From Acidobacteriota bacterium (lineage in GTDB: Bacteria; Acidobacteriota; Thermoanaerobaculia; Thermoanaerobaculales; Sulfomarinibacteraceae): a stretch of 64,000 nt of DNA. The notes beneath the pieces are model-generated. The model saw only the letters and a program-made list of their open reading frames with translations. It had not been told where the DNA came from and did no database searches. The DNA lies in the NCBI GenBank assembly GCA_024641545.1, contig JAHECW010000005.1:6067-70066 (forward strand), read 5' to 3'. The translations under genes were made by a program, and so were the position numbers. This document shows, piece after piece, positions 537-10,240 of this stretch; position 1 is the stretch's first letter; the number at the start of each line of letters is the position of its first letter.

Positions 537-2591
537 TCATTGGAAAAACCCTTCGGCGACAACCACGGGCCGCCCGCCGATCCCATCATCGGGCACGACC
601 TCGATCTCGGATTCGACCCCTCGGTGGCAGAAGCCACAACGGGTCATCACCGGTTCCTCGATCGCTTTCTTGGATTCGTGGGCGCAGTGGCACTCGACAC
701 AGAGCTGGTGCATGGCGAGGCGATATCCGGGAGCGATCCCGGCGATTTCGCTCCGGTCCGCTCTCTCTTCCGGGTCGCTCGCAGCGGACACACCATGGCA
801 CCCGGAACAGGCGATGTCGCCGACGGCGGCGTCGGTCGAGCACTGATGACGGCCCTCGGCGAACGCCTGCGAAATCTCGGCTCGGTGGCACTCGACGCAG
901 GGAGTCGCCGAAGCGCGGTTCTTGACGGCTTCGGTCGCCGGGTGGCAGCGTCCGCAGGAGGCATTGTTGCCGAGCGCGGTGATGTGGTCGTCGTGGATGA
1001 AGGTGTCGGTGCAACGGTACATGTCGGCGTGGCAGGTCGCACACGGCGTGCCCCGCTCAAAGCGGAGGTTGCGATGGTGACAGAGGTTGCACGAGGCCTC
1101 GCCACCGAGCCGGTCGCGGTGGGCGGTGTGGTCGAAGAGCACCGCCCGGCCCGCGCGGTCGCCGTCGATGAGCAGCGCGGTCGTGAATCCCTCGGGGAAC
1201 TGAGCGGGAGCGATCTCGTTGCCGAGGAAGAGCAGGCTCGCCGGCATCGACTCGTCCACCACGAGCCGCACCGCGGCCACCGTCCGAGCCGAACGAGTCG
1301 GCACCGCAGGGGGGTACTTACCACCGGTGGTCGTGGTCTCGAGCACGACCATGCCGACCACGATCCCGATCACCCACCCCGCCGCCGCCAGGTGGGCGCG
1401 GCCGAACCACACCCCACCGAAGTAGTTGTGGGTCAAAGGGTCGGAGATCGGCGGGGTGAAGTGATCGGGATTCGCCGGCGCCTCCTCCCAGACCGGGAAA
1501 CGCTCGACGAAGAAGAGAAAGATCAGGGCCATTCCGGAGACCAATCCGACGCTGACCAGGATCTCGGTCAGGGCCGGAAGGTAGGTTTCCCCGCCGGCCG
1601 CCAGGTGAACGATGCCGCCCACGTCCGCCCGATGGAGGACGAACCCGGCGACGCCGGTGAACGCGCCGACCACGACGGGCCAGTGTTTGTCGGACAGCGA
1701 CGGGAGGTTGAAAAGCACCAACGGAATCACCACCGACATCGCGAGCTCGAGGGCAAAGAGCACCGAGTACCACGATGGCTGTACCAGCAGGTGGAGCTGG
1801 TGGCGAAGACCGAGATCGGTCAGTCTCACCGCGAGATAGAGCAGCAGCACCACCGATGCCGCCCGGACCAGACCGCGGAGCACCGGCCATTCCCCGTGGC
1901 GGTGGTAGAGCCAGGCGGTGGTGCTGCTCTCCACCGCGACCATCATCAAACCGAGCCCGATGGCCGAGACAAAAAAGAGCAGCGGCAGGATGGGTGAATA
2001 CCAAAGCGGGTGGAGACGGTCCTTGGCGAGGAGAAAGAGCGTGCCCAGGGAACTCTGATGGAGGGTGGAAAGGCCGATACCGGCAATCACGAGCACCAGG
2101 CTGACGCGACGCATGACCCGCAGCGCCCGCTCCCACTTCAGACCTTCGAAGAGCACGGGAACGAACTCGAGGGCAAGAACCGTGAGGTAGAGCATGACGC
2201 ACCAGCCGACCTCGAAGAGCGGCGAGTCGGGTTGCCAGAAGACGATCATGCGCCAGATGTTCCACGGCCGGCCGAGGTCGACGAGGAGGCCGAGGGCGAC
2301 GGCGAGATAGCCGAGAAAGGCGGTCAACACCGCGGGCCGGACGAGGCCGTGATAACGGTCGAGGTGGAAGATGTGCACCGTTGCGGCGATCACGAACCCG
2401 CCGGCGGCCAGCGCCACTCCCGAGAGCACGTCGAACCCGATCCACAGACCCCACGGCGTCCCATCCGTGAGCGCCGTGGTGGCGCCGAGGCCGCGCAGGT
2501 AGCGCGCAACGGCCACCGCGGCGGCGATGCCGATCAAGAACCAGAGGACGGCCTTGGTCACGATGAGGCGGGTGTTGTTGGCTTCGTTCAC
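537..2591 (-). CDS. NrfD/PsrC/DsrP-like polytopic membrane subunit fused to a C-terminal heptahaem c-type cytochrome domain
   Basis: GTG start overlapping the upstream stop (GTGA). The first ~430 aa have about 10-11 hydrophobic helices in an NrfD-family pattern. The last ~250 aa are soluble and carry seven CxxCH motifs (CNLCH, CATCH, CGRCH, CVECH, CSGCH, CVECH, CGFCH). Confidence 0.85.
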   Translation of the reverse strand: MNEANNTRLIVTKAVLWFLIGIAAAVAVARYLRGLGATTALTDGTPWGLWIGFDVLSGVALAAGGFVIAATVHIFHLDRYHGLVRPAVLTAFLGYLAVALGLLVDLGRPWNIWRMIVFWQPDSPLFEVGWCVMLYLTVLALEFVPVLFEGLKWERALRVMRRVSLVLVIAGIGLSTLHQSSLGTLFLLAKDRLHPLWYSPILPLLFFVSAIGLGLMMVAVESSTTAWLYHRHGEWPVLRGLVRAASVVLLLYLAVRLTDLGLRHQLHLLVQPSWYSVLFALELAMSVVIPLVLFNLPSLSDKHWPVVVGAFTGVAGFVLHRADVGGIVHLAAGGETYLPALTEILVSVGLVSGMALIFLFFVERFPVWEEAPANPDHFTPPISDPLTHNYFGGVWFGRAHLAAAGWVIGIVVGMVVLETTTTGGKYPPAVPTRSARTVAAVRLVVDESMPASLLFLGNEIAPAQFPEGFTTALLIDGDRAGRAVLFDHTAHRDRLGGEASCNLCHHRNLRFERGTPCATCHADMYRCTDTFIHDDHITALGNNASCGRCHPATEAVKNRASATPCVECHRAEISQAFAEGRHQCSTDAAVGDIACSGCHGVSAASDPEERADRSEIAGIAPGYRLAMHQLCVECHCAHESKKAIEEPVMTRCGFCHRGVESEIEVVPDDGIGGRPVVVAEGFFQ

Positions 2592-3400
2592 GACTCCTCC
2601 TCGTTCCGTTGGACTTCGTCGCCCGGGTCGGCGGTGGCGGCGGTCGGGCCTTCGGCGGCTGCAACCTGGCGCCGCCGTTCGAGCGTCCAGTGGACGCCGT
2701 ACATGAGGCCGGCGACGCCGAAGAAGGTGTAGGGAACGGTGTGCAGGACCTTGCGGGCGAGCTCCGGACGCGATCCGGTGCCGAGATCATCGGGCCAGCG
2801 TGCGTCGGTGAGATCGACGTCCGAGATGGTCAACACCGAGGTGCCGCCGACCTCGTGCTCGCCCCAGATGTGGTCGATGTAGCGCTGTGGCGCCGCGGCG
2901 ATCCTCGAGCGTGCTTCGGCGAGCAGCGCCTCGCGATCGCCGAAGATCGTGGCCTCGGTTGGACAGGCTGCGGTGCAGGCCGGCTGTGAGAGCTCACCCG
3001 CCTTGATCTTGTCGTAACAGAGAATGCACTTGCGCACCCTCGGCGTCGCCGACTCCCACTCGTAGCGTGTCATTGCAAAAGGACAGGCCACCATGCAGTA
3101 GCGACAACCCATGCAGATCACCGGGTTGTAGGCCACCGCGCCGGCTTCGGTCCTGCTCAACGCACCCACCGGGCACGCGGCTGCGCAGGCAGGATCGAGA
3201 CAGTGGCGGCAGTGGAGACGAACGTTCCGGTTACCGGTTTCAACGAGCGTTGTCCACCGGGTGGATGACAGATCGTTGACCCCGCCCTGCCAGCGGTAGG
3301 GCGCATCCGATCCGGTGTCGTTTGTCCGCCGGCACGCGGAGACGCATTCCTCGCAGCCGATGCAGCGGGTCACGTCGGTGAGAATCGCCATGGTCGTCAT
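2588..3400 (-). CDS. 4x[4Fe-4S] ferredoxin-type electron-transfer subunit (NrfC/DmsB/PsrB/DsrO/HmcB-like)
   Basis: Cys clusters CIGCEECVSAC, CRHCLDPACAAACP, CMGCRYCMVACP and CILCYD...CTAACP. ATG overlaps the upstream stop (ATGA). No N-terminal Tat/Sec-like signal is visible. C-terminal hydrophobic helix TVPYTFFGVAGLMYGVHW. Confidence 0.85.
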   Translation of the reverse strand: MTTMAILTDVTRCIGCEECVSACRRTNDTGSDAPYRWQGGVNDLSSTRWTTLVETGNRNVRLHCRHCLDPACAAACPVGALSRTEAGAVAYNPVICMGCRYCMVACPFAMTRYEWESATPRVRKCILCYDKIKAGELSQPACTAACPTEATIFGDREALLAEARSRIAAAPQRYIDHIWGEHEVGGTSVLTISDVDLTDARWPDDLGTGSRPELARKVLHTVPYTFFGVAGLMYGVHWTLERRRQVAAAEGPTAATADPGDEVQRNEEES

Positions 3401-4098
3401 ACCGGCTCTCCCTCCTTGTTCAGGGCCTGCGCGACGTGGCGGCCGGTCTCAGCCGGGAAGTGCCATCCGAGTTGGAAGACCAGACGGGTGAACGGATAGA
3501 GGACACAGTGCGCGATCTTGGTGATCGGAACCAGCACCAATACCAGATCCCCGACAAGCACGTGCAGCAGCAGCATGGTCCGGGCGGCAAACGGGCTGAA
3601 GGCCGGATTCGCCGCCCACCAGCCGAAAAGAACGAGGGCAAACAGGATGACGAGCACGAGCACGTCCCCCGCCCGGGTGATGGCACGCGAACTCGCGGAC
3701 CCGAGCCGGCCCACGACCAGCGCGAGCAACGCCGCCAGGGAAACCAGGGTCACACCGTCGGCAACCGCCTCGGGAATGACCGGCCACCAGACCGGGAGAA
3801 TTCCGGGGAGCAACGCCGCATGCCCGGCCAGAAACAGCGGCACCACGAGCACGCCGACGTGGAAGAGCACCGACGCGGAGCTGTAGACCGGCCGCTTGTG
3901 CCACAAACGGCGGGGCACGAGCCAACCGGCAGTGGCGGCGACAATGTCGCCGAGCGGCAGCCGGCGATCGCCGGCGCGGTGCCACGCAACCGCGATCTGT
4001 CCGACCAGGGTGACGATTCTGTAGCCGAGCCCGAGAACGCACACCGTGAGAGCGATTCGAAAGAGCGGACCACGAGCAAACTCGATCCAGCCGTCCAT
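3397..4098 (-). CDS. NarI/DsrM/HmcE-like membrane cytochrome b subunit
   Basis: 233 aa with 5-6 hydrophobic helices. Conserved-looking intramembrane His residues (LFHVGVL, AGHAAL, LLLHVLVG, KIAHCVL) fit two haem b sites of the nitrate-reductase-gamma family. Sits immediately downstream of the CCG-domain gene. Confidence 0.7.
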   Translation of the reverse strand: MDGWIEFARGPLFRIALTVCVLGLGYRIVTLVGQIAVAWHRAGDRRLPLGDIVAATAGWLVPRRLWHKRPVYSSASVLFHVGVLVVPLFLAGHAALLPGILPVWWPVIPEAVADGVTLVSLAALLALVVGRLGSASSRAITRAGDVLVLVILFALVLFGWWAANPAFSPFAARTMLLLHVLVGDLVLVLVPITKIAHCVLYPFTRLVFQLGWHFPAETGRHVAQALNKEGEPV

Positions 4099-4105
4099 GA
4101 AGACC

Positions 4106-5500
4106 TCACACCTCTGACGCGGCGCCGACGGCCGCGTCGTCGATCTCGATCAGCATTTCCGCCGGCGGGACGATGGCCTTGATCAAGAGGTCGTGCAGGC
4201 CGACGACCCGGACCTGATCCAGCCCGTGGTCCTCGCAGACCTCGCGCAGCTGCTTCTTGCAGTTGGCGCACGGCGCCACGACGATCTCGGCGCCGGTGCG
4301 GCGGATCTGTTCCGCCTTCTTGGCGCCGCCCACCAGGGTTCTGAACTCGCGGATTTCGTCGATGGACACGGTGCCGCCACCGCCGCCGCAGCAGTAGTTT
4401 TCCCGACCCTTCGGGGTCATGTCGACATAGTCGGCGCAGATGTGGCGGAGGATCTCGCGCGGTTGGTCGATGATCCACCCCGTGCGGGCGATGTTGCACG
4501 GATCGTGGTACGTCGTGCGCTGGGAGACGACATCGGGCCGCAACTCGAGCCGGCCCTCCTTCCACGCCCGGTGGGTGTACTCCATGAAGTTCACCACCTC
4601 CGGGGCATCATCGGCGCCGCAGAAGGTCCGGATGAAGAACTTCGCGGACCGGGAGGCGTGGCCGCACTCCCCGATGAGGATCTTCCTCGCGCCCAGCCGG
4701 CGGACCTCCTCGGCCTCCATTGAGACGATCCGGTCGAGCATCCTGTCGGAGTAGAAAAGGCCGTAGTTGATGCCGTCGTACGCTCCCGTACCGATGGTCC
4801 ACGAACCGCCGGTGGCACTCATGACCGCCGCGTTGCCGATGAGGGTGTCGGGTTCGAGCAGATAGTCGCTCACCGCCGGGAAGAAGACATACTCGGTGCC
4901 TTCCCGGTCGATCGGGAACTCGATCTTGAGCCCGACCTCGTCGGCGCAGTCTTCTTCGAGGAACTCGCAGGTGTCGAGGAGGGCCGCCTTGGGGATCGCC
5001 GAGGTGTTGCGGGTGGTCCCGTCGAGTTGCTCCCGCGTCGCGACCACAAGAGCTTTGGGGACGATCCCCACTTCGGCGAGAGACCAACGGGCGAGGTGGG
5101 TGAGGAGCCCGTGGTCGATGCCCATGGGACACTCGAGGTTGCACCGCCGACAGGCCGTGCAGCGGTAGAACTCTTCCGCCATGGTGTTGATGTAGGCCTC
5201 ATCGATCTCGAACGATCGCCCGAACCGCGCCCCCAGGTTTCCGAACGGGGTGAAATACCGGCGATAGACCTTGAGCAGAAGCTCGGACCGGCGGCACGGG
5301 ATGTCGCGGTCCTCTCCCGATGTCTCGTAGACGGGGCAACTGGTGCTGCAGCGGCCGCACCGCGTGGTCACCCGGCAGGCGGTATCGAGCACCATCGCGT
5401 AGTTCGAGTGCGAGAGGATGGCCGCGAGGCCTTCAAGGTACCGCCTCGGCAGATCGCTGGTGTCAACGGGCTCGAGATAGTAGGAACATTCAATGGCCAT
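4106..5500 (-). CDS. DsrK/HdrD/HmcF-like Fe-S protein with CCG (cysteine-rich) domain
   Basis: Two ferredoxin motifs (CGRCSTSCP, CTACRRCNLECP). CCG-domain signature YHDPCNIAR ... NYCCGGGGG ... CANCK. Start trimmed from the track value 5713 to the ATG at 5500 (MAIECSYY...), because a -24/-12 promoter lies at 5545-5562 inside the longer ORF and a GAAGGGA RBS-like stretch precedes 5500. Confidence 0.85.
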   Translation of the reverse strand: MAIECSYYLEPVDTSDLPRRYLEGLAAILSHSNYAMVLDTACRVTTRCGRCSTSCPVYETSGEDRDIPCRRSELLLKVYRRYFTPFGNLGARFGRSFEIDEAYINTMAEEFYRCTACRRCNLECPMGIDHGLLTHLARWSLAEVGIVPKALVVATREQLDGTTRNTSAIPKAALLDTCEFLEEDCADEVGLKIEFPIDREGTEYVFFPAVSDYLLEPDTLIGNAAVMSATGGSWTIGTGAYDGINYGLFYSDRMLDRIVSMEAEEVRRLGARKILIGECGHASRSAKFFIRTFCGADDAPEVVNFMEYTHRAWKEGRLELRPDVVSQRTTYHDPCNIARTGWIIDQPREILRHICADYVDMTPKGRENYCCGGGGGTVSIDEIREFRTLVGGAKKAEQIRRTGAEIVVAPCANCKKQLREVCEDHGLDQVRVVGLHDLLIKAIVPPAEMLIEIDDAAVGAASEV

Positions 5501-5544
5501 GGGAATCCCTTCGGCGCAGCGGGCTGTCGTACCACCCATCGGTA

Positions 5545-5562
5545 GAGCATTTGTTGTGCCAA
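5545..5562 (-). promoter_or_regulatory. Sigma-54 (-24/-12) promoter of the DsrK-like/cytochrome operon
   Basis: The minus strand reads TTGGCACAACAAATGCTC. This is TGGCAC-N5-aTGC with correct GG-N10-GC spacing and one mismatch to TGGCAC-N5-TTGC. It lies ~35 nt upstream of the ATG at 5500 and faces away from a sigma-54 activator gene 145 bp away. Confidence 0.6.
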
Positions 5563-5590
5563 ACCCGAGAATTTTCATGAAACCATTTGT

Positions 5591-5603
5591 TATCAATAAT
5601 TTA
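5591..5603. promoter_or_regulatory. IHF-like bending site between the sigma-54 promoter and the divergent activator gene
   Basis: TATCAATAATTTA fits WATCAANNNNTTR. It lies in the only strongly AT-rich patch of the 5563-5706 intergenic region, ~30-40 bp upstream of the -24 element. Confidence 0.25.
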
Positions 5604-5706
5604 TTAGTGAGTCTGAGAGAAATTTCCGCTTTCGTAATGTCGCGAAATTGGAACTGATGTCTCGAAGGTATTGTAAATATGGAACACTCGATGGATAATC
5701 GGCAAC

Positions 5707-7044
5707 ATGACACACAGGATCGATCCCCGCTATGGCAGCCTGATCTTCGACAACATTCCGCACGGGATCTTCACCGTCGACGCCGAACGGCGAATCACCT
5801 CCTTCAACCGCGCCGCCGAGGAAATCACGGGCTGGTCCCAGGAGGAGGCTCTCGGTCGTCCGTGCACGTCGATCTTCAACTCCAACCACTGCGCCGGCCG
5901 CTGCTTCCTCTTCAACAGCATCGAGCGCGGCGAGCCCCACCGCGACTGCGAGGTCCACATCATCAAGCGAAACGGCACCGAGATCTCGGTCGCGGTGAGC
6001 ACCGCGAGCCTGACGAGTGATGACGGCGAGGTCATCGGCGGGATCGAAATGTTCCGCGACCTCACCGAGGTCAATACCCTCCGGCGGGAACTCGAGGGGT
6101 CCTACCAGATCGGCGATATCGTCTCCAAGAGCGCCGCCATGAAGGGTGTCCGCGATCTCCTTCCGCTCGTTGCCCGCAGCGACAGCACCGTGCTCATCGA
6201 AGGCGAGCCCGGCACCGGCAAAGAACTGGTTGCACGAGCAATCCACAACATGGGTCCCAGGCGGGAGGGCCCGTTTGTCGGGGTCAACTGCGGCGCCCTG
6301 CCGGAATCGCTCGTCGAGTCCGAGCTCTTCGGCCACGTCCGCGGCGCTTTCACCGACGCAAAAAGGGACAAGCCCGGCCGTTTCGCCGCCGCCCAGGGGG
6401 GAACCCTCCTCCTCGACGAGATCGGCGACATCTCGGCCGCGGTGCAGGTCAAACTCCTTCGGGTGCTCCAGGAACGCGAGTACGTGCCTCTCGGATCCTC
6501 GGAGCCCGTCAAGGCCGATGTCAGGATTCTCGCCGCCACCAACCGTGATCTGTCACACGAGGCGATGAACGGCCGCTTCCGCCAGGATCTCTATTTTCGC
6601 CTCAACGTGGTTCGGATCGTGCTGCCGCCGCTGCGTTCCCGGTGGGAGGACATCCCGCTCCTGGTGCAACACTTCATCGAGCGCTTCAACAACCTCCAGG
6701 GGCGCCGGATCTGCGGCATCTCCGAACGCGCCATGACAACCCTCGCGGGTCACTCCTTCCCGGGCAACGTACGCGAACTCGAAAACGCCATCGAACACGC
6801 TTTCGTGGTGTGCGCCGGCAACACCATACGCCGCGAAGATCTGCCGCCGCACATCCGCGGCGAGGCCGCCGTCCCGCCGGAGGCATCCCGGGAATCTGCC
6901 GGCGGTCCGCTCGACGCGGCCGAGGCCGCGGCCATTCGTGACGCTCTCAGGCGCTATTCCAACAACCGAACCGAGACCGCCCGGGGACTGGGCATCTCGC
7001 GGAATACGCTTTGGCGGAAGATGAAGAAATACCGGATACCATGA
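5707..7044 (+). CDS. Sigma-54-dependent transcriptional activator (PAS - AAA+ - Fis-type HTH; no receiver domain)
   Basis: N-terminal PAS (IPHGIFTVDAERRITSFNRAAEEITGW). Walker A GEPGTGKE, GAFTDA loop, LLLDEIGD, PGNVRELEN. C-terminal HTH ETARGLGISRNTLWRKMKKY. Confidence 0.9.
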   Translation: MTHRIDPRYGSLIFDNIPHGIFTVDAERRITSFNRAAEEITGWSQEEALGRPCTSIFNSNHCAGRCFLFNSIERGEPHRDCEVHIIKRNGTEISVAVSTASLTSDDGEVIGGIEMFRDLTEVNTLRRELEGSYQIGDIVSKSAAMKGVRDLLPLVARSDSTVLIEGEPGTGKELVARAIHNMGPRREGPFVGVNCGALPESLVESELFGHVRGAFTDAKRDKPGRFAAAQGGTLLLDEIGDISAAVQVKLLRVLQEREYVPLGSSEPVKADVRILAATNRDLSHEAMNGRFRQDLYFRLNVVRIVLPPLRSRWEDIPLLVQHFIERFNNLQGRRICGISERAMTTLAGHSFPGNVRELENAIEHAFVVCAGNTIRREDLPPHIRGEAAVPPEASRESAGGPLDAAEAAAIRDALRRYSNNRTETARGLGISRNTLWRKMKKYRIP

Positions 7045-7177: not shown

Positions 7178-8782
7178 CTAGTGCCATTCCCAATCGATAA
7201 ATCCCGGCTTGACGTCGACCATGGCGTTGACGATGAGCTCCACCAGACCGCCGTAGTAGATCCCGGCCTTCTCGAATGCATCGTAGTAGGTGATGATGTC
7301 GCGGATCTGGCCCTTGCAGTTGGAGCACGGCGCGCAGACGTACTTCATGTGCGACGGATCCATGGACTCGTCCTGGAAGGCATTGAGGATCTGGCGGAAT
7401 TTCCGCCGCCCGGTCATCCGATGGCGCCAATCCTTGAAATTGTGGCCCGACATGATGGCGAAGCCCGAACCGCCGCCGCAGCAGTAGTTCTCGACCCCGT
7501 GCGGCGCCATTTCGCGGAAGCGGCCCTCGGGCACCACCGCGTCGATGATCTCGCGCTGCGGCGAGACGATGCCCATGAGGCGCACCAGGTTGCACGGATC
7601 ATGCAGGGTCACCGGGAAGTCGTTGCGGCTCTTGTCGAGCTTGAGCACACCCGATCGGATGATATCGCGCAGGGTCACCATGGAGCTCTCGCGCGGGATG
7701 TTGAGGTCGCCGGTGAGCACCTTGTCGGCGATGACCGTGAGGGCTTTGTGGGCGTGGCCGCACTCACCGAGGACGATCTTTCTGACTCCGAGTTTCTTGG
7801 CGATGGCGGCGTGCCGCACCGCGACCCGCGCGAACTGGACGTCGTCGTACCAGACCCCGTAGTTGATCCCGTCGTAGCCGATGGCATCGGACGACAGGGT
7901 CCAGCTGAGGCCGGCCGCTTCGAAGACCGTGGCGAAGGCGCCGGGGTTCTCGGGCCAGGCCATGATCTCACCGGCATTGTGGATGAGGAGGATGTCGGCG
8001 CCGACCTTGTCGAACGGCGTCTCGATGGTGATGCCGGTGCGCTCCGCGGTGTCTTCGTCGATGAACTCGATGTTGTCCTTGACGATCATCGGGGTCATAC
8101 CGGTGGATGAACCGACCCTGAGCTGAAGCACGGACCCGTCGTCGTGGATCTCCTTGGGAACGATCCCCATCTCCATGCTCGCGATCTTCCGGATCTCGCG
8201 CGACAGCAGCGCGTTGTCGGCGCCGATGGGACAGGTCTGGGCGCAGCGGCGGCAGAGGTTGCAGCGGTAGCTCAACTCGATGAGCCGGGCCACCGTCTCC
8301 CAGTTGAGATCGATGTCGCCGTGCAGCGAAGGCGAGGCCTTCTTGACGTACTTGAAGTAGATCCGGCGCAGGATTTCGGAACGATAGACGGGTCGGTAGA
8401 GTTCGTTCTCACCGCTTTCCTGGAAGATCGGGCAGGCGTCGGAGCAGGTGTGGCACTTGGCGCAGTGCTCCATCGACATCTCGAAGGGCTGGAGGAACGT
8501 CCAGTTGTCGTCGACGCTGAAGAGCTTCTCGAGACCGCTGAGGAAGCCGTTGACCAGCTTGTCTTCCTCTTCCTTGGTCTTCGGTTTCTCGATATTGACC
8601 GCGATGGTGTCGTCGAGAACGACGTACTTTTCGCGGGCGGCGTCGGAGAGCTGGGCGAACTCGGGCTCTTCGTCGATCTTGTCAAAGGGGGGCGGCAACG
8701 GGATCTGTTCGTACTGGTTGATCTGGGCGAGGGGTTCGCCCGGATTCTTCCCCATGTCCTTGACGCTGTTGGGCTGTTTCAT
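7178..8782 (-). CDS. Second DsrK/HdrD-like Fe-S protein with CCG domain
   Basis: CAKCHTCSDACP and CNLCRRCAQTCP ferredoxin motifs. LHDPCNLVR ... NYCCGGGSG ... CAPCSNCK CCG signature. ATG overlaps the upstream stop (ATGA). Confidence 0.85.
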   Translation of the reverse strand: MKQPNSVKDMGKNPGEPLAQINQYEQIPLPPPFDKIDEEPEFAQLSDAAREKYVVLDDTIAVNIEKPKTKEEEDKLVNGFLSGLEKLFSVDDNWTFLQPFEMSMEHCAKCHTCSDACPIFQESGENELYRPVYRSEILRRIYFKYVKKASPSLHGDIDLNWETVARLIELSYRCNLCRRCAQTCPIGADNALLSREIRKIASMEMGIVPKEIHDDGSVLQLRVGSSTGMTPMIVKDNIEFIDEDTAERTGITIETPFDKVGADILLIHNAGEIMAWPENPGAFATVFEAAGLSWTLSSDAIGYDGINYGVWYDDVQFARVAVRHAAIAKKLGVRKIVLGECGHAHKALTVIADKVLTGDLNIPRESSMVTLRDIIRSGVLKLDKSRNDFPVTLHDPCNLVRLMGIVSPQREIIDAVVPEGRFREMAPHGVENYCCGGGSGFAIMSGHNFKDWRHRMTGRRKFRQILNAFQDESMDPSHMKYVCAPCSNCKGQIRDIITYYDAFEKAGIYYGGLVELIVNAMVDVKPGFIDWEWH

Positions 8783-9714
8783 TTGGTCTGGTCCTCCAAG
8801 GTCACGTCAAGCCAGCTTTTCTTACCGTCGGCTCCGATGTGCGGCGCCGACCAGGTCACCGGCCTCGAGAGGAGTTCCTGGATGGTCCCCTCCTGCCGGC
8901 CGCCGGCCAGGTTCGGCTCATCCGACCAGCGGATGGAGTGGTAGGCGAAGTACTTGCCGATGAAATGCGACATATGGGTCGTCGGGATGTAAGCGGTGAG
9001 CAGCGCGAGCAGCACCACCGACAGAGTCAACAGCAGGCCGGCCGGCCCGGCTCCGACCGGTGCGAGGTCGAAGGTCACCAGATTGGTGATGAAGGTGGTG
9101 ACCATGGAGAAATCTCGGTCGTAGACGACAAGAGACACCAACGAGACTCCGAAGGCGGCGATGAAGAAGACGAGGTTGAACAGATCGGCCGGCGCCGTGT
9201 AGTCGCGGAGGGCGCGGCTGCGGCGGCGCATGAAGAGCCCGATGGCGCCGATGATCCCCAAAACCAGCCCTGCCCCACCGAGGAATGGAGCCACGAGGTT
9301 GACGATCTTGGCCACGGGTGCCGCAATGTTCTCCGGAAGATAGCCGACAACCAACCCGCCGGCGAGCATGAGCGCGGTCACGCCGCCCACCAGGTAGAGT
9401 CCGAAGTGAAACGGAAAGGAGCGGGTCCAGAGCTTCTTGTTGTGCTCTCTCAGCGCAACCAGAAAGAGGATCTCCGGCACCATGACCTTGAGCTCGCCGA
9501 AGAGCGAGACCTCGCGTTTCTTGGTCCACCACTCGGTGTCTTCGAGATAGGACCCACCGTACGCGGCCTTTCCACCGCCCTCGTGCGCGACGGGATAGAG
9601 TTCCCACCGCACGTGCATCGGCATCTTCGACCACATCATGAATCGGGCGATGCACGCGATGAGAAAGAAGACGAGGCCGAGGTAGGCGACCACGTACGCG
9701 AAAGTAGTCATCAT
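8779..9714 (-). CDS. Second NarI/DsrM/HmeC-like membrane cytochrome b subunit
   Basis: Polytopic membrane protein with the typical N-terminal stretch MPMHVRWELYPVAHEGGGKAAYGGSYLED...FPFHFGLY. The track start at 9720 is GTG; the ATG at 9714 or 9711 follows a GAGGTG RBS, so the start is uncertain by a few codons. Confidence 0.75.
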   Translation of the reverse strand: MMTTFAYVVAYLGLVFFLIACIARFMMWSKMPMHVRWELYPVAHEGGGKAAYGGSYLEDTEWWTKKREVSLFGELKVMVPEILFLVALREHNKKLWTRSFPFHFGLYLVGGVTALMLAGGLVVGYLPENIAAPVAKIVNLVAPFLGGAGLVLGIIGAIGLFMRRRSRALRDYTAPADLFNLVFFIAAFGVSLVSLVVYDRDFSMVTTFITNLVTFDLAPVGAGPAGLLLTLSVVLLALLTAYIPTTHMSHFIGKYFAYHSIRWSDEPNLAGGRQEGTIQELLSRPVTWSAPHIGADGKKSWLDVTLEDQTK

Positions 9715-10240
9715 TATCACCTCATGGTTATTTTACAGTATTGTGTTACGTCATGCGATAACAGCTTCAACGCGCTCATTCTACTGAAGACGACCGCTGA
9801 TTCTCAAGATTTCGCTCAGCAACGGTTGACCTTCGGATGGGCCCGCGCGCCACTCCACCGATGAACCACTGCCGACGGGACCACATCTCCCGCGATTCGA
9901 GCAATTGCCATTCCTGAGTGAAACGCTCAGCATTGACTCCACCACCGGAGAAGATCGCTCAATCCGTCGCAAGATCAAGTGTTTCGCGATCAAGAAGCTC
10001 CGCGCCGAATCGACTTGTGGTGCAGGTCCGGATCACCGCTGTCGACATGTCGCAATCCTGGAACACCCTCACCCTCCGTTACGGCGAGGTGACACCGGCA
10101 CGTGTATTTGTGCTCAGTTTTGAGATTGAAGCTCGCTGCTGCCGACTTCGAAACCACCCACGAAGGCGCCGGCAGTGTCCGCAGTCTTCGACTCCTGATC
10201 GCGCACAGGCAAGTGGTTTCTTTCACCGCGAGAAGTGCCG

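Follow-up and report, generated by a model that had tools for sequence, protein, structure and literature searches.

In Desulfovibrio vulgaris Hildenborough, the one-component PAS-AAA+-HTH (helix-turn-helix) activator OrpR (DVU2106) adjoins its sigma-54 targets, and its regulon, as defined by chromatin immunoprecipitation sequencing (ChIP-seq), is limited to the two orp operons next to its gene (Fievet et al., 2011, 2014, 2021; PMC3897727, PMC8359166). Its PAS domain harbours a [4Fe-4S] cluster that is redox-sensitive, three cysteines (C52/C61/C65) are needed for redox sensing, and the protein, which is active under reducing conditions, becomes constitutive once the PAS domain or these cysteines are removed (PMC8359166). 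The sigma-54 contact loop of OrpR, GAFTDA, is listed among the variants taken to remain competent (PMC4641369), and at the orp promoters sites for integration host factor (IHF) are found between the OrpR binding sites and the promoters (PMC3897727). Also in Desulfovibrio, DVU3142 stands divergent from the sigma-54 promoter of the ohcBAC cytochrome complex, to which it has been linked by comparative genomics, and TGT-N9/11/12-ACA motif classes have been described for activators of this genus (Kazakov et al., 2015; PMC4641369). Here, we describe a locus of comparable layout from an uncultured bacterium, in which a four-gene operon for an Hmc-like redox complex and a divergent gene for a putative OrpR-like activator flank a short control region. 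The locus lies in a 64-kb stretch of DNA (G000:C213:6067-70066; hereafter the window, to which positions refer unless a contig is named) within a genome of 5.38 Mb and 65.5% GC, the relatives of which are labelled Acidobacteriota / Thermoanaerobaculia metagenome-assembled genomes (MAGs).

We consider it very probable that positions 5546-5706 are the control region of a sigma-54-dependent operon, with a divergent activator and two palindromes, a redox-type signal being proposed by analogy. Judged by phylogenetic footprinting over 33 orthologous loci (the window and 32 loci from a genome collection), this is a standard locally regulated sigma-54 architecture. A first inspection of the window (the original prediction) had already interpreted it as a sigma-54 operon under local control, with the activator gene placed divergently, and this overall reading is supported by the presence of rpoN, by the conservation of the promoter and by the synteny of the activator gene. 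What is new is the specific association, among uncultured Acidobacteriota, of an Hmc-like complex with a tri-Cys PAS activator resembling OrpR, a defined TGT-N12-ACA tandem site and the spread of the whole cassette over MAGs of several phyla.

The -24/-12 element and the start of the first gene

The GG-N10-GC motif that had been proposed on the minus strand at 5547-5561 is present there as TGGCACAACAAATGC, with GG at 5559-5560 and GC at 5547-5548. The -24/-12 form of this site is TGGCAC-N5-ATGCT, and the pattern TGGCAC-N5-WTGCW has a single occurrence in the window versus 0.07 expected. From the 3' end of the motif to the ATG at 5500 there are 46 nt; the distance of about 35 nt given by the original prediction therefore fails for the motif itself and fits the predicted transcription start, which would fall at ~5535-5536.

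Regarding the sigma factor, the original prediction presupposed an rpoN gene elsewhere in the genome, and this gene is indeed found (G000:C167:16591-18102; 446.8 bits versus a TIGR02395 cut-off of 277.35). Moreover, TGGCAC-N5-TTGC occurs 24 times in the genome, versus 1 and 7 times for the N4 and N6 spacings, and the majority of these 24 copies are located just 5' of co-oriented genes. This excess of the N5 spacing and this placement imply that sigma-54 is in active use. A genome-wide scan, also foreseen by the original prediction, was performed with a position weight matrix (PWM) built from the genome's own TGGCAC-N5-TTGC sites, a matrix that penalises ATGC at -12; the site at 5546-5561 ranks 55th among ~10.8 million genome positions.

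The decisive evidence comes from conservation. When 13 orthologous upstream regions are aligned, from loci whose first-gene proteins share 72-100% identity, GG..AC-N5-.TGC is invariant and the flanks are divergent. Searched within 420 nt of the start codon, the strict pattern NGGYAY-N5-NTGCN is matched in 28/33 orthologous upstream regions versus 2.8% of shuffled regions, bearing in mind that our shuffle controls, here and for the IHF-like core, treat related loci as independent. The remaining five loci carry GG-N10-GC variants (e.g., CGGCACGCTCTTCGCC), so that a -24/-12 element is found in 33/33 loci, 56-147 nt 5' of the start codon, with TGGCACG-N2-CC-N-TGCC as the orthologue consensus. On this footing, the element of the window is a genuine, textbook sigma-54 promoter.

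The position of the promoter bears on how the operon's first gene should be annotated. A mechanical list of open reading frames (ORFs) gives this gene as 4106-5713, and the original prediction had moved its start to 5500. The ATG at 5500-5498 (minus strand) is preceded by a Shine-Dalgarno sequence, AAGGGA, at 5511-5506, and alignments to homologues begin at residue 1 of the protein starting there. The GC content at third codon positions (GC3) is 0.88 in the coding sequence versus 0.42 in the 5501-5713 extension, which would moreover include the promoter and cross the start codon of the activator gene. Taken together, the homologue alignments, the drop in GC3 and the overlap with the promoter and the activator start place the start at 5500, and the 4106-5713 version was rejected, its 5' extension being non-coding by GC3.

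The same evidence bears on the possibility that the GG-N10-GC motif is fortuitous and that transcription of the operon relies on a sigma-70-type promoter or on the longer ORF from 5713. This possibility draws on the ORF list and on the -12 element, ATGC and not the commoner TTGC, which deviates from the consensus. With an element kept in every orthologous locus, no sigma-70-like promoter found on the minus strand of 5300-5900 and an extension contradicted by GC3, by the homologues and by the activator start codon, it is largely refuted and we regard it as extremely improbable. On the plus strand, there are two weak sigma-70-like matches (5572-5600 and 5671-5699), which could be promoters of the activator gene.

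The divergent activator and its candidate binding sites

The PAS-AAA+-HTH gene that had been proposed at 5707 on the plus strand has the expected Pfam domains, PF00158 (Sigma54_activat) being matched at 2.4e-66, and its product matches many enhancer-binding protein models of NCBIfam, all under their equivalog cut-offs. An orthologue with 53-88% identity stands divergently beside the operon in 30/32 loci, and these loci include MAGs labelled Planctomycetota, Eiseniibacteriota and 'Fibrobacteraceae'. In 27/27 orthologues, three cysteines of the PAS domain (C53/C62/C66, i.e., C-x8-C-x3-C) and the sigma-54 contact loop GAFTDA are invariant; this loop occurs in 1 of the ~14 activators of the genome. 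As the invariant triad and the GAFTDA loop both match OrpR, we infer an OrpR-like redox input. Of the 1141 relatives obtained in a homologue search with the PAS region, none carries the name OrpR, and a search of the PDB gave generic PAS matches only (phytochrome B, DosP, FixL). Among the more than 1000 relatives of the tri-Cys PAS domain, the set P0006-P0014 includes some longer proteins (430-770 aa), in which several tri-Cys PAS copies are apparent since their bit scores lie above the self-score of the query.

The likeness to OrpR extends to the whole arrangement. Both are one-component PAS-AAA+-HTH activators adjoining their sigma-54 targets, with identical cysteine spacing and the rare GAFTDA loop; in both, palindromic sites are located ~90-130 bp 5' and an IHF or IHF-like site lies between these and the promoter; and the own-locus regulation of OrpR has its counterpart in the best site pair of this genome, which is at the activator's own locus. 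However, in this locus an Hmc-type redox complex takes the place of the orp genes as the target, the DNA motif is TGT-N12-ACA and not GGGCGYRTTTTGCGCCC as for OrpR, and the host belongs to the Acidobacteriota (Thermoanaerobaculia) and not to the Desulfovibrionales. With shared sensor motifs and a different target and sites, the activator is thus OrpR-like in its sensor and logic and would not be a functional OrpR orthologue. DVU3142 and ohcBAC share with this locus a divergent activator and a sigma-54 promoter for a membrane cytochrome c/Fe-S complex of the Hmc/Tmc/Nhc/Ohc group. They differ by the canonical GAFTGA loop of DVU3142 versus GAFTDA here, and by the other subunit set of the Ohc complex, which has neither a DsrK-like CCG subunit nor an NrfD-cytochrome fusion.

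Two 18-bp palindromes in the spacer are the putative sites of the activator, a reading that draws on conserved synteny together with the conservation of the sites. Their consensus is TGTTCCAATATTGGAACA, that is TGT-N12-ACA with extended half-sites. NifA-type upstream activating sequences (UAS) read TGT-N10-ACA. With these and with the Desulfovibrio motif classes, the palindromes share TGT...ACA half-sites for a Fis-type HTH_8 domain, located ~100-150 bp 5' in a helix-face-dependent manner, and they differ by the 12-nt spacer, the TGTTCCA/TGGAACA half-sites and a fixed 31-32 bp tandem. The proximal palindrome (UAS 2) begins 94 nt 5' of the T of the -24 element and the distal one (UAS 1) at -125, in helical phase with the promoter, a separation of 31 bp or ~three helical turns that also shows as a TGGAAC direct repeat with 31-bp spacing across the two. 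Their centres are at ~-111 and ~-142 from the predicted transcription start, as is usual for activator sites.

The orthologues, with the window held out, served to train the palindrome PWM, and the site positions were tabulated in the same orthologues. Genome-wide, this PWM gives 8 positions scoring at least 15, UAS 2 among them, and 17 scoring at least 13; no pair with 31-bp spacing other than UAS 1 and UAS 2 exists in the 5.38-Mb genome. Among the orthologous loci, 26 of the 30 in which two sites were found hold them 31-32 bp apart. In most orthologues the start of the proximal site falls into one of two classes, -92 to -96 and -103 to -107 from the T of TGG, which are separated by one helical turn (Rayleigh p ~2e-5, the loci being related). 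UAS 1 overlaps the -35 hexamer of the sigma-70-like match at 5671-5699, which suggests that the activator may regulate its own gene.

The original prediction had looked for activator sites in an inverted repeat, AATTTC...GAAATT, at 5622-5651. This repeat is real (5621-5626 and 5644-5649) but 6 nt long and does not count as a conserved element; UAS 2 overlaps its right arm. It was rejected as an activator site, the conserved elements being the two 18-bp palindromes.

The promoter could instead be real and answer to another activator, for instance a two-component response regulator or a paralogue from elsewhere in the window, with the divergent gene regulating something else. A genome encoding ~14 activators offers such candidates. 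Against this stand the retention of the divergent gene pair in nearly all loci, in MAGs labelled several phyla, the co-variation of the palindrome positions with the promoter and the unique 31-bp-spaced pair at this locus, and we regard this possibility as quite improbable. We therefore retain control by the divergent activator, with the following points weighing against it in addition to the -12 deviation and to those raised below for the IHF-like core. Each palindrome of the window has one imperfect outer triplet (AGT..ACA and TGT..ATA). It is by synteny, and by this one line of evidence, that the 5707-7044 protein is singled out among the ~14 activators as the palindrome binder. Likewise, the link to OrpR is one of motifs, next to a DNA motif and a target that differ.

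The IHF-like core in the AT-rich spacer

The spacer between the promoter and the activator gene (5562-5706) has a GC content of 36.6% versus 65.5% for the genome and is the sole AT-rich stretch within 4500-7000, which bears out what the original prediction had said of it. No Rfam family matched this spacer at E <= 1. It contains a sequence matching the core WATCAANNNNTTR at 9/9 positions, its centre ~36 nt 5' of the T of the -24 element and at ~-62 from the predicted start. Full matches to WATCAANNNNTTR number 1 in the window and 13 in the whole genome, and the chance of one in the 145-bp AT-rich spacer is 1.4-1.9%.

Across the orthologues, a core with at least 8/9 matches is found in 9/33 spacers versus 2.4 +/- 1.4 in shuffles, 0/400 shuffles reaching 9. 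In seven of those nine spacers its offset is -36 to -41 and its strand always the one opposite to the operon, and a positional scan across the spacers peaks only at these offsets. With a threshold of at least 7/9, 12/33 loci have the core on that strand at an offset between -41 and -32. The genome encodes four DNABII proteins, all of which score higher on IHF than on HU models.

Alternatively, the match at 5591-5603 would be due to chance in a spacer rich in AT, and looping would be ensured by intrinsic flexibility or curvature and not by a bending protein. At the equivalent place, the same-genus relatives have 8/9, 6/9 and 6/9 and no full match; many orthologue spacers are GC-rich (55-76% GC) and devoid of a core match; and none of the other 12 genome-wide matches to WATCAANNNNTTR accompanies a -24/-12 site of high score, and a full core is absent from all other top-scoring sigma-54 promoters of the genome. 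Furthermore, no DNABII protein passes the IHF equivalog cut-offs, the best scores being 105.8 versus 115 for IHF beta and 91.3 versus 111 for IHF alpha. Set against these points are the low chance of a full core in the spacer, the enrichment with its single positional peak on one strand and the preference of the DNABII proteins for IHF over HU models. A chance match is thus a serious contender, not far from an even call, and for a functional bending-protein site at 5591-5603 the evidence is about evenly balanced. The OrpR system makes use of IHF at just this position (PMC3897727). The original prediction of an IHF-like site holds in part: about one orthologue in three has such a site with offset and strand unchanged, while close relatives lack a full match and the DNABII proteins remain below the cut-offs.

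Table 1. Coordinates of the features discussed, in positions of the window.
Feature	Positions	Strand	Sequence or size	Basis
Sigma-54 (-24/-12) promoter	5546-5561	minus	TGGCACAACAAATGCT	Sequence, PWM, conservation
IHF-like core	5591-5603	plus	TATCAATAATTTA (matches WATCAANNNNTTR 9/9)	Consensus match
UAS 2, proximal palindrome (candidate)	5638-5655		plus TGTCGCGAAATTGGAACT, minus AGTTCCAATTTCGCGACA	PWM 15.4
UAS 1, distal palindrome (candidate)	5669-5686		plus TATTGTAAATATGGAACA	PWM 13.1
Enhancer-binding protein (PAS, Sigma54_activat, AAA_lid_14, HTH_8)	5707-7044	plus	445 aa	Pfam
DsrK/HmcF/TmcB-like CCG-domain Fe-S protein, first gene	4106-5500	minus	464 aa	Family matches
HmcE/TmcC-like membrane protein	3397-4098	minus		Family matches
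HmcB-like 4Fe-4S protein	2588-3400	minus		Family matches
HmcC/NrfD-like membrane protein fused to cytochrome c (seven-haem)	537-2591	minus	7 CxxCH	Translation, family matches

The operon, related sigma-54 units and proposed regulation

The operon spans 537-5500 and its four genes (Table 1) are tightly coupled, with a 7-nt gap followed by two 4-nt overlaps. Like HmcABCDEF and TmcABCD, the encoded complex combines matches to the HmcF/TmcB, HmcE/TmcC, HmcB and HmcC models with a multihaem cytochrome c domain; it differs by a reversed gene order and by the fusion of its 7-haem cytochrome to the NrfD-like subunit. All NCBIfam equivalog cut-offs are missed (HmcF 197.5/750, DsrK 273/400, HmcE 113.6/275, HmcB 224/420, HmcC 294/550), and the operon is therefore best described as related to the Hmc/Tmc complexes and not as a member of them. 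The hmc operon of Desulfovibrio is under Rrf1/Rrf2 control and not under that of sigma-54. The HmcB-like subunit opens directly with its first cluster motif, without a Tat or Sec leader, and has a hydrophobic helix at its end. No terminator-like site was found 3' of the operon end at 537; a minus-strand gene (2-442), cut by the window edge, starts 94 nt past the last gene of the operon, and as no such site stands between them the two may be co-transcribed.

The best match of the palindrome PWM in the genome is a single site, TGTCGCAATCCTGGAACA, at 10048-10065 (score 17.7), in the 560-bp intergenic region 5' of a DsrM/DsrK-like gene pair (7178-9720, minus strand). Three same-genus genomes retain it at 320-328 nt from the start of the DsrM-like gene, with variable flanks. 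Some 135 nt downstream of it, on the minus strand, a conserved AGGAATGGCAATTGCT (9900-9915) has the GG-N10-GC spacing with a perfect -12 and a poor -24 element, and a conserved CTTGATC-N9-CTTGATC repeat lies between the two. The DsrM/DsrK-like pair may, on these sequence features, be a second target of the same activator.

Beyond the left edge of the window, at ~2.6 kb, a canonical sigma-54 site (TGGCACAGGGGTTGCA; G000:C213:3417-3432, minus strand) is located 228 nt 5' of the co-oriented gene C213:2005-3204, and the neighbourhood would therefore hold several sigma-54-driven units. Furthermore, most of the paralogous DsrK-like operons L015-L030 (57-64% identity), which were excluded from the palindrome site model, have a canonical TGGCAC-N5-TTGCT ~100-160 nt 5'. 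They have other activator arrangements and no paired TGT-N12-ACA, with three isolated single PWM matches. From their promoters, sigma-54 control seems to be general for this operon family in these bacteria.

Regarding the mechanism, we propose that sigma-54 RNA polymerase would bind TGGCAC-N5-ATGCT at 5546-5561 in a closed complex unable to open alone. The 5707-7044 protein would bind the TGTTCCAATATTGGAACA palindromes at 5638-5655 and 5669-5686 and assemble into an ATPase oligomer, the GAFTDA loop of which would contact sigma-54 as the AT-rich spacer is looped and the promoter opens. Looping would probably be aided, either through a DNABII protein of the IHF-like type bound at 5591-5603 or through the intrinsic bending of the spacer. 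Transcription would start from ~5535, with a leader of ~35 nt before the ATG at 5500, and the transcript would cover the four coupled genes for a transmembrane redox complex of the Hmc/Tmc/Ohc type. By analogy with OrpR, the C-x8-C-x3-C triad of the PAS domain would sense redox; the signal is most likely the cellular redox potential or exposure to oxidants, the operon being on under reducing conditions.

This analysis corrects the annotation of the first gene, the start of which is at 5500 and not at 5713, and provides a precise map of the control region with its promoter, two candidate activator sites and a probable bending site. Moreover, it ties an uncharacterised Hmc-type complex of uncultured Thermoanaerobaculia to an OrpR-like Cys-triad PAS sensor, which suggests that the complex is expressed under reducing, anoxic conditions. 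A more tentative proposal, which we hold possible though somewhat short of probable, is that an OrpR-type Fe-S PAS activator couples redox potential to an undescribed Hmc-like quinone/cytochrome/CCG complex, and maybe to the DsrMK-like pair through the site at 10048-10065, in a cassette common to uncultured bacteria labelled Acidobacteriota, Planctomycetota, Eiseniibacteriota and 'Fibrobacteraceae'. If so, a class of Fe-S-sensing activators so far represented by one Desulfovibrio protein with an obscure target would extend to the control of respiratory hardware across phyla.

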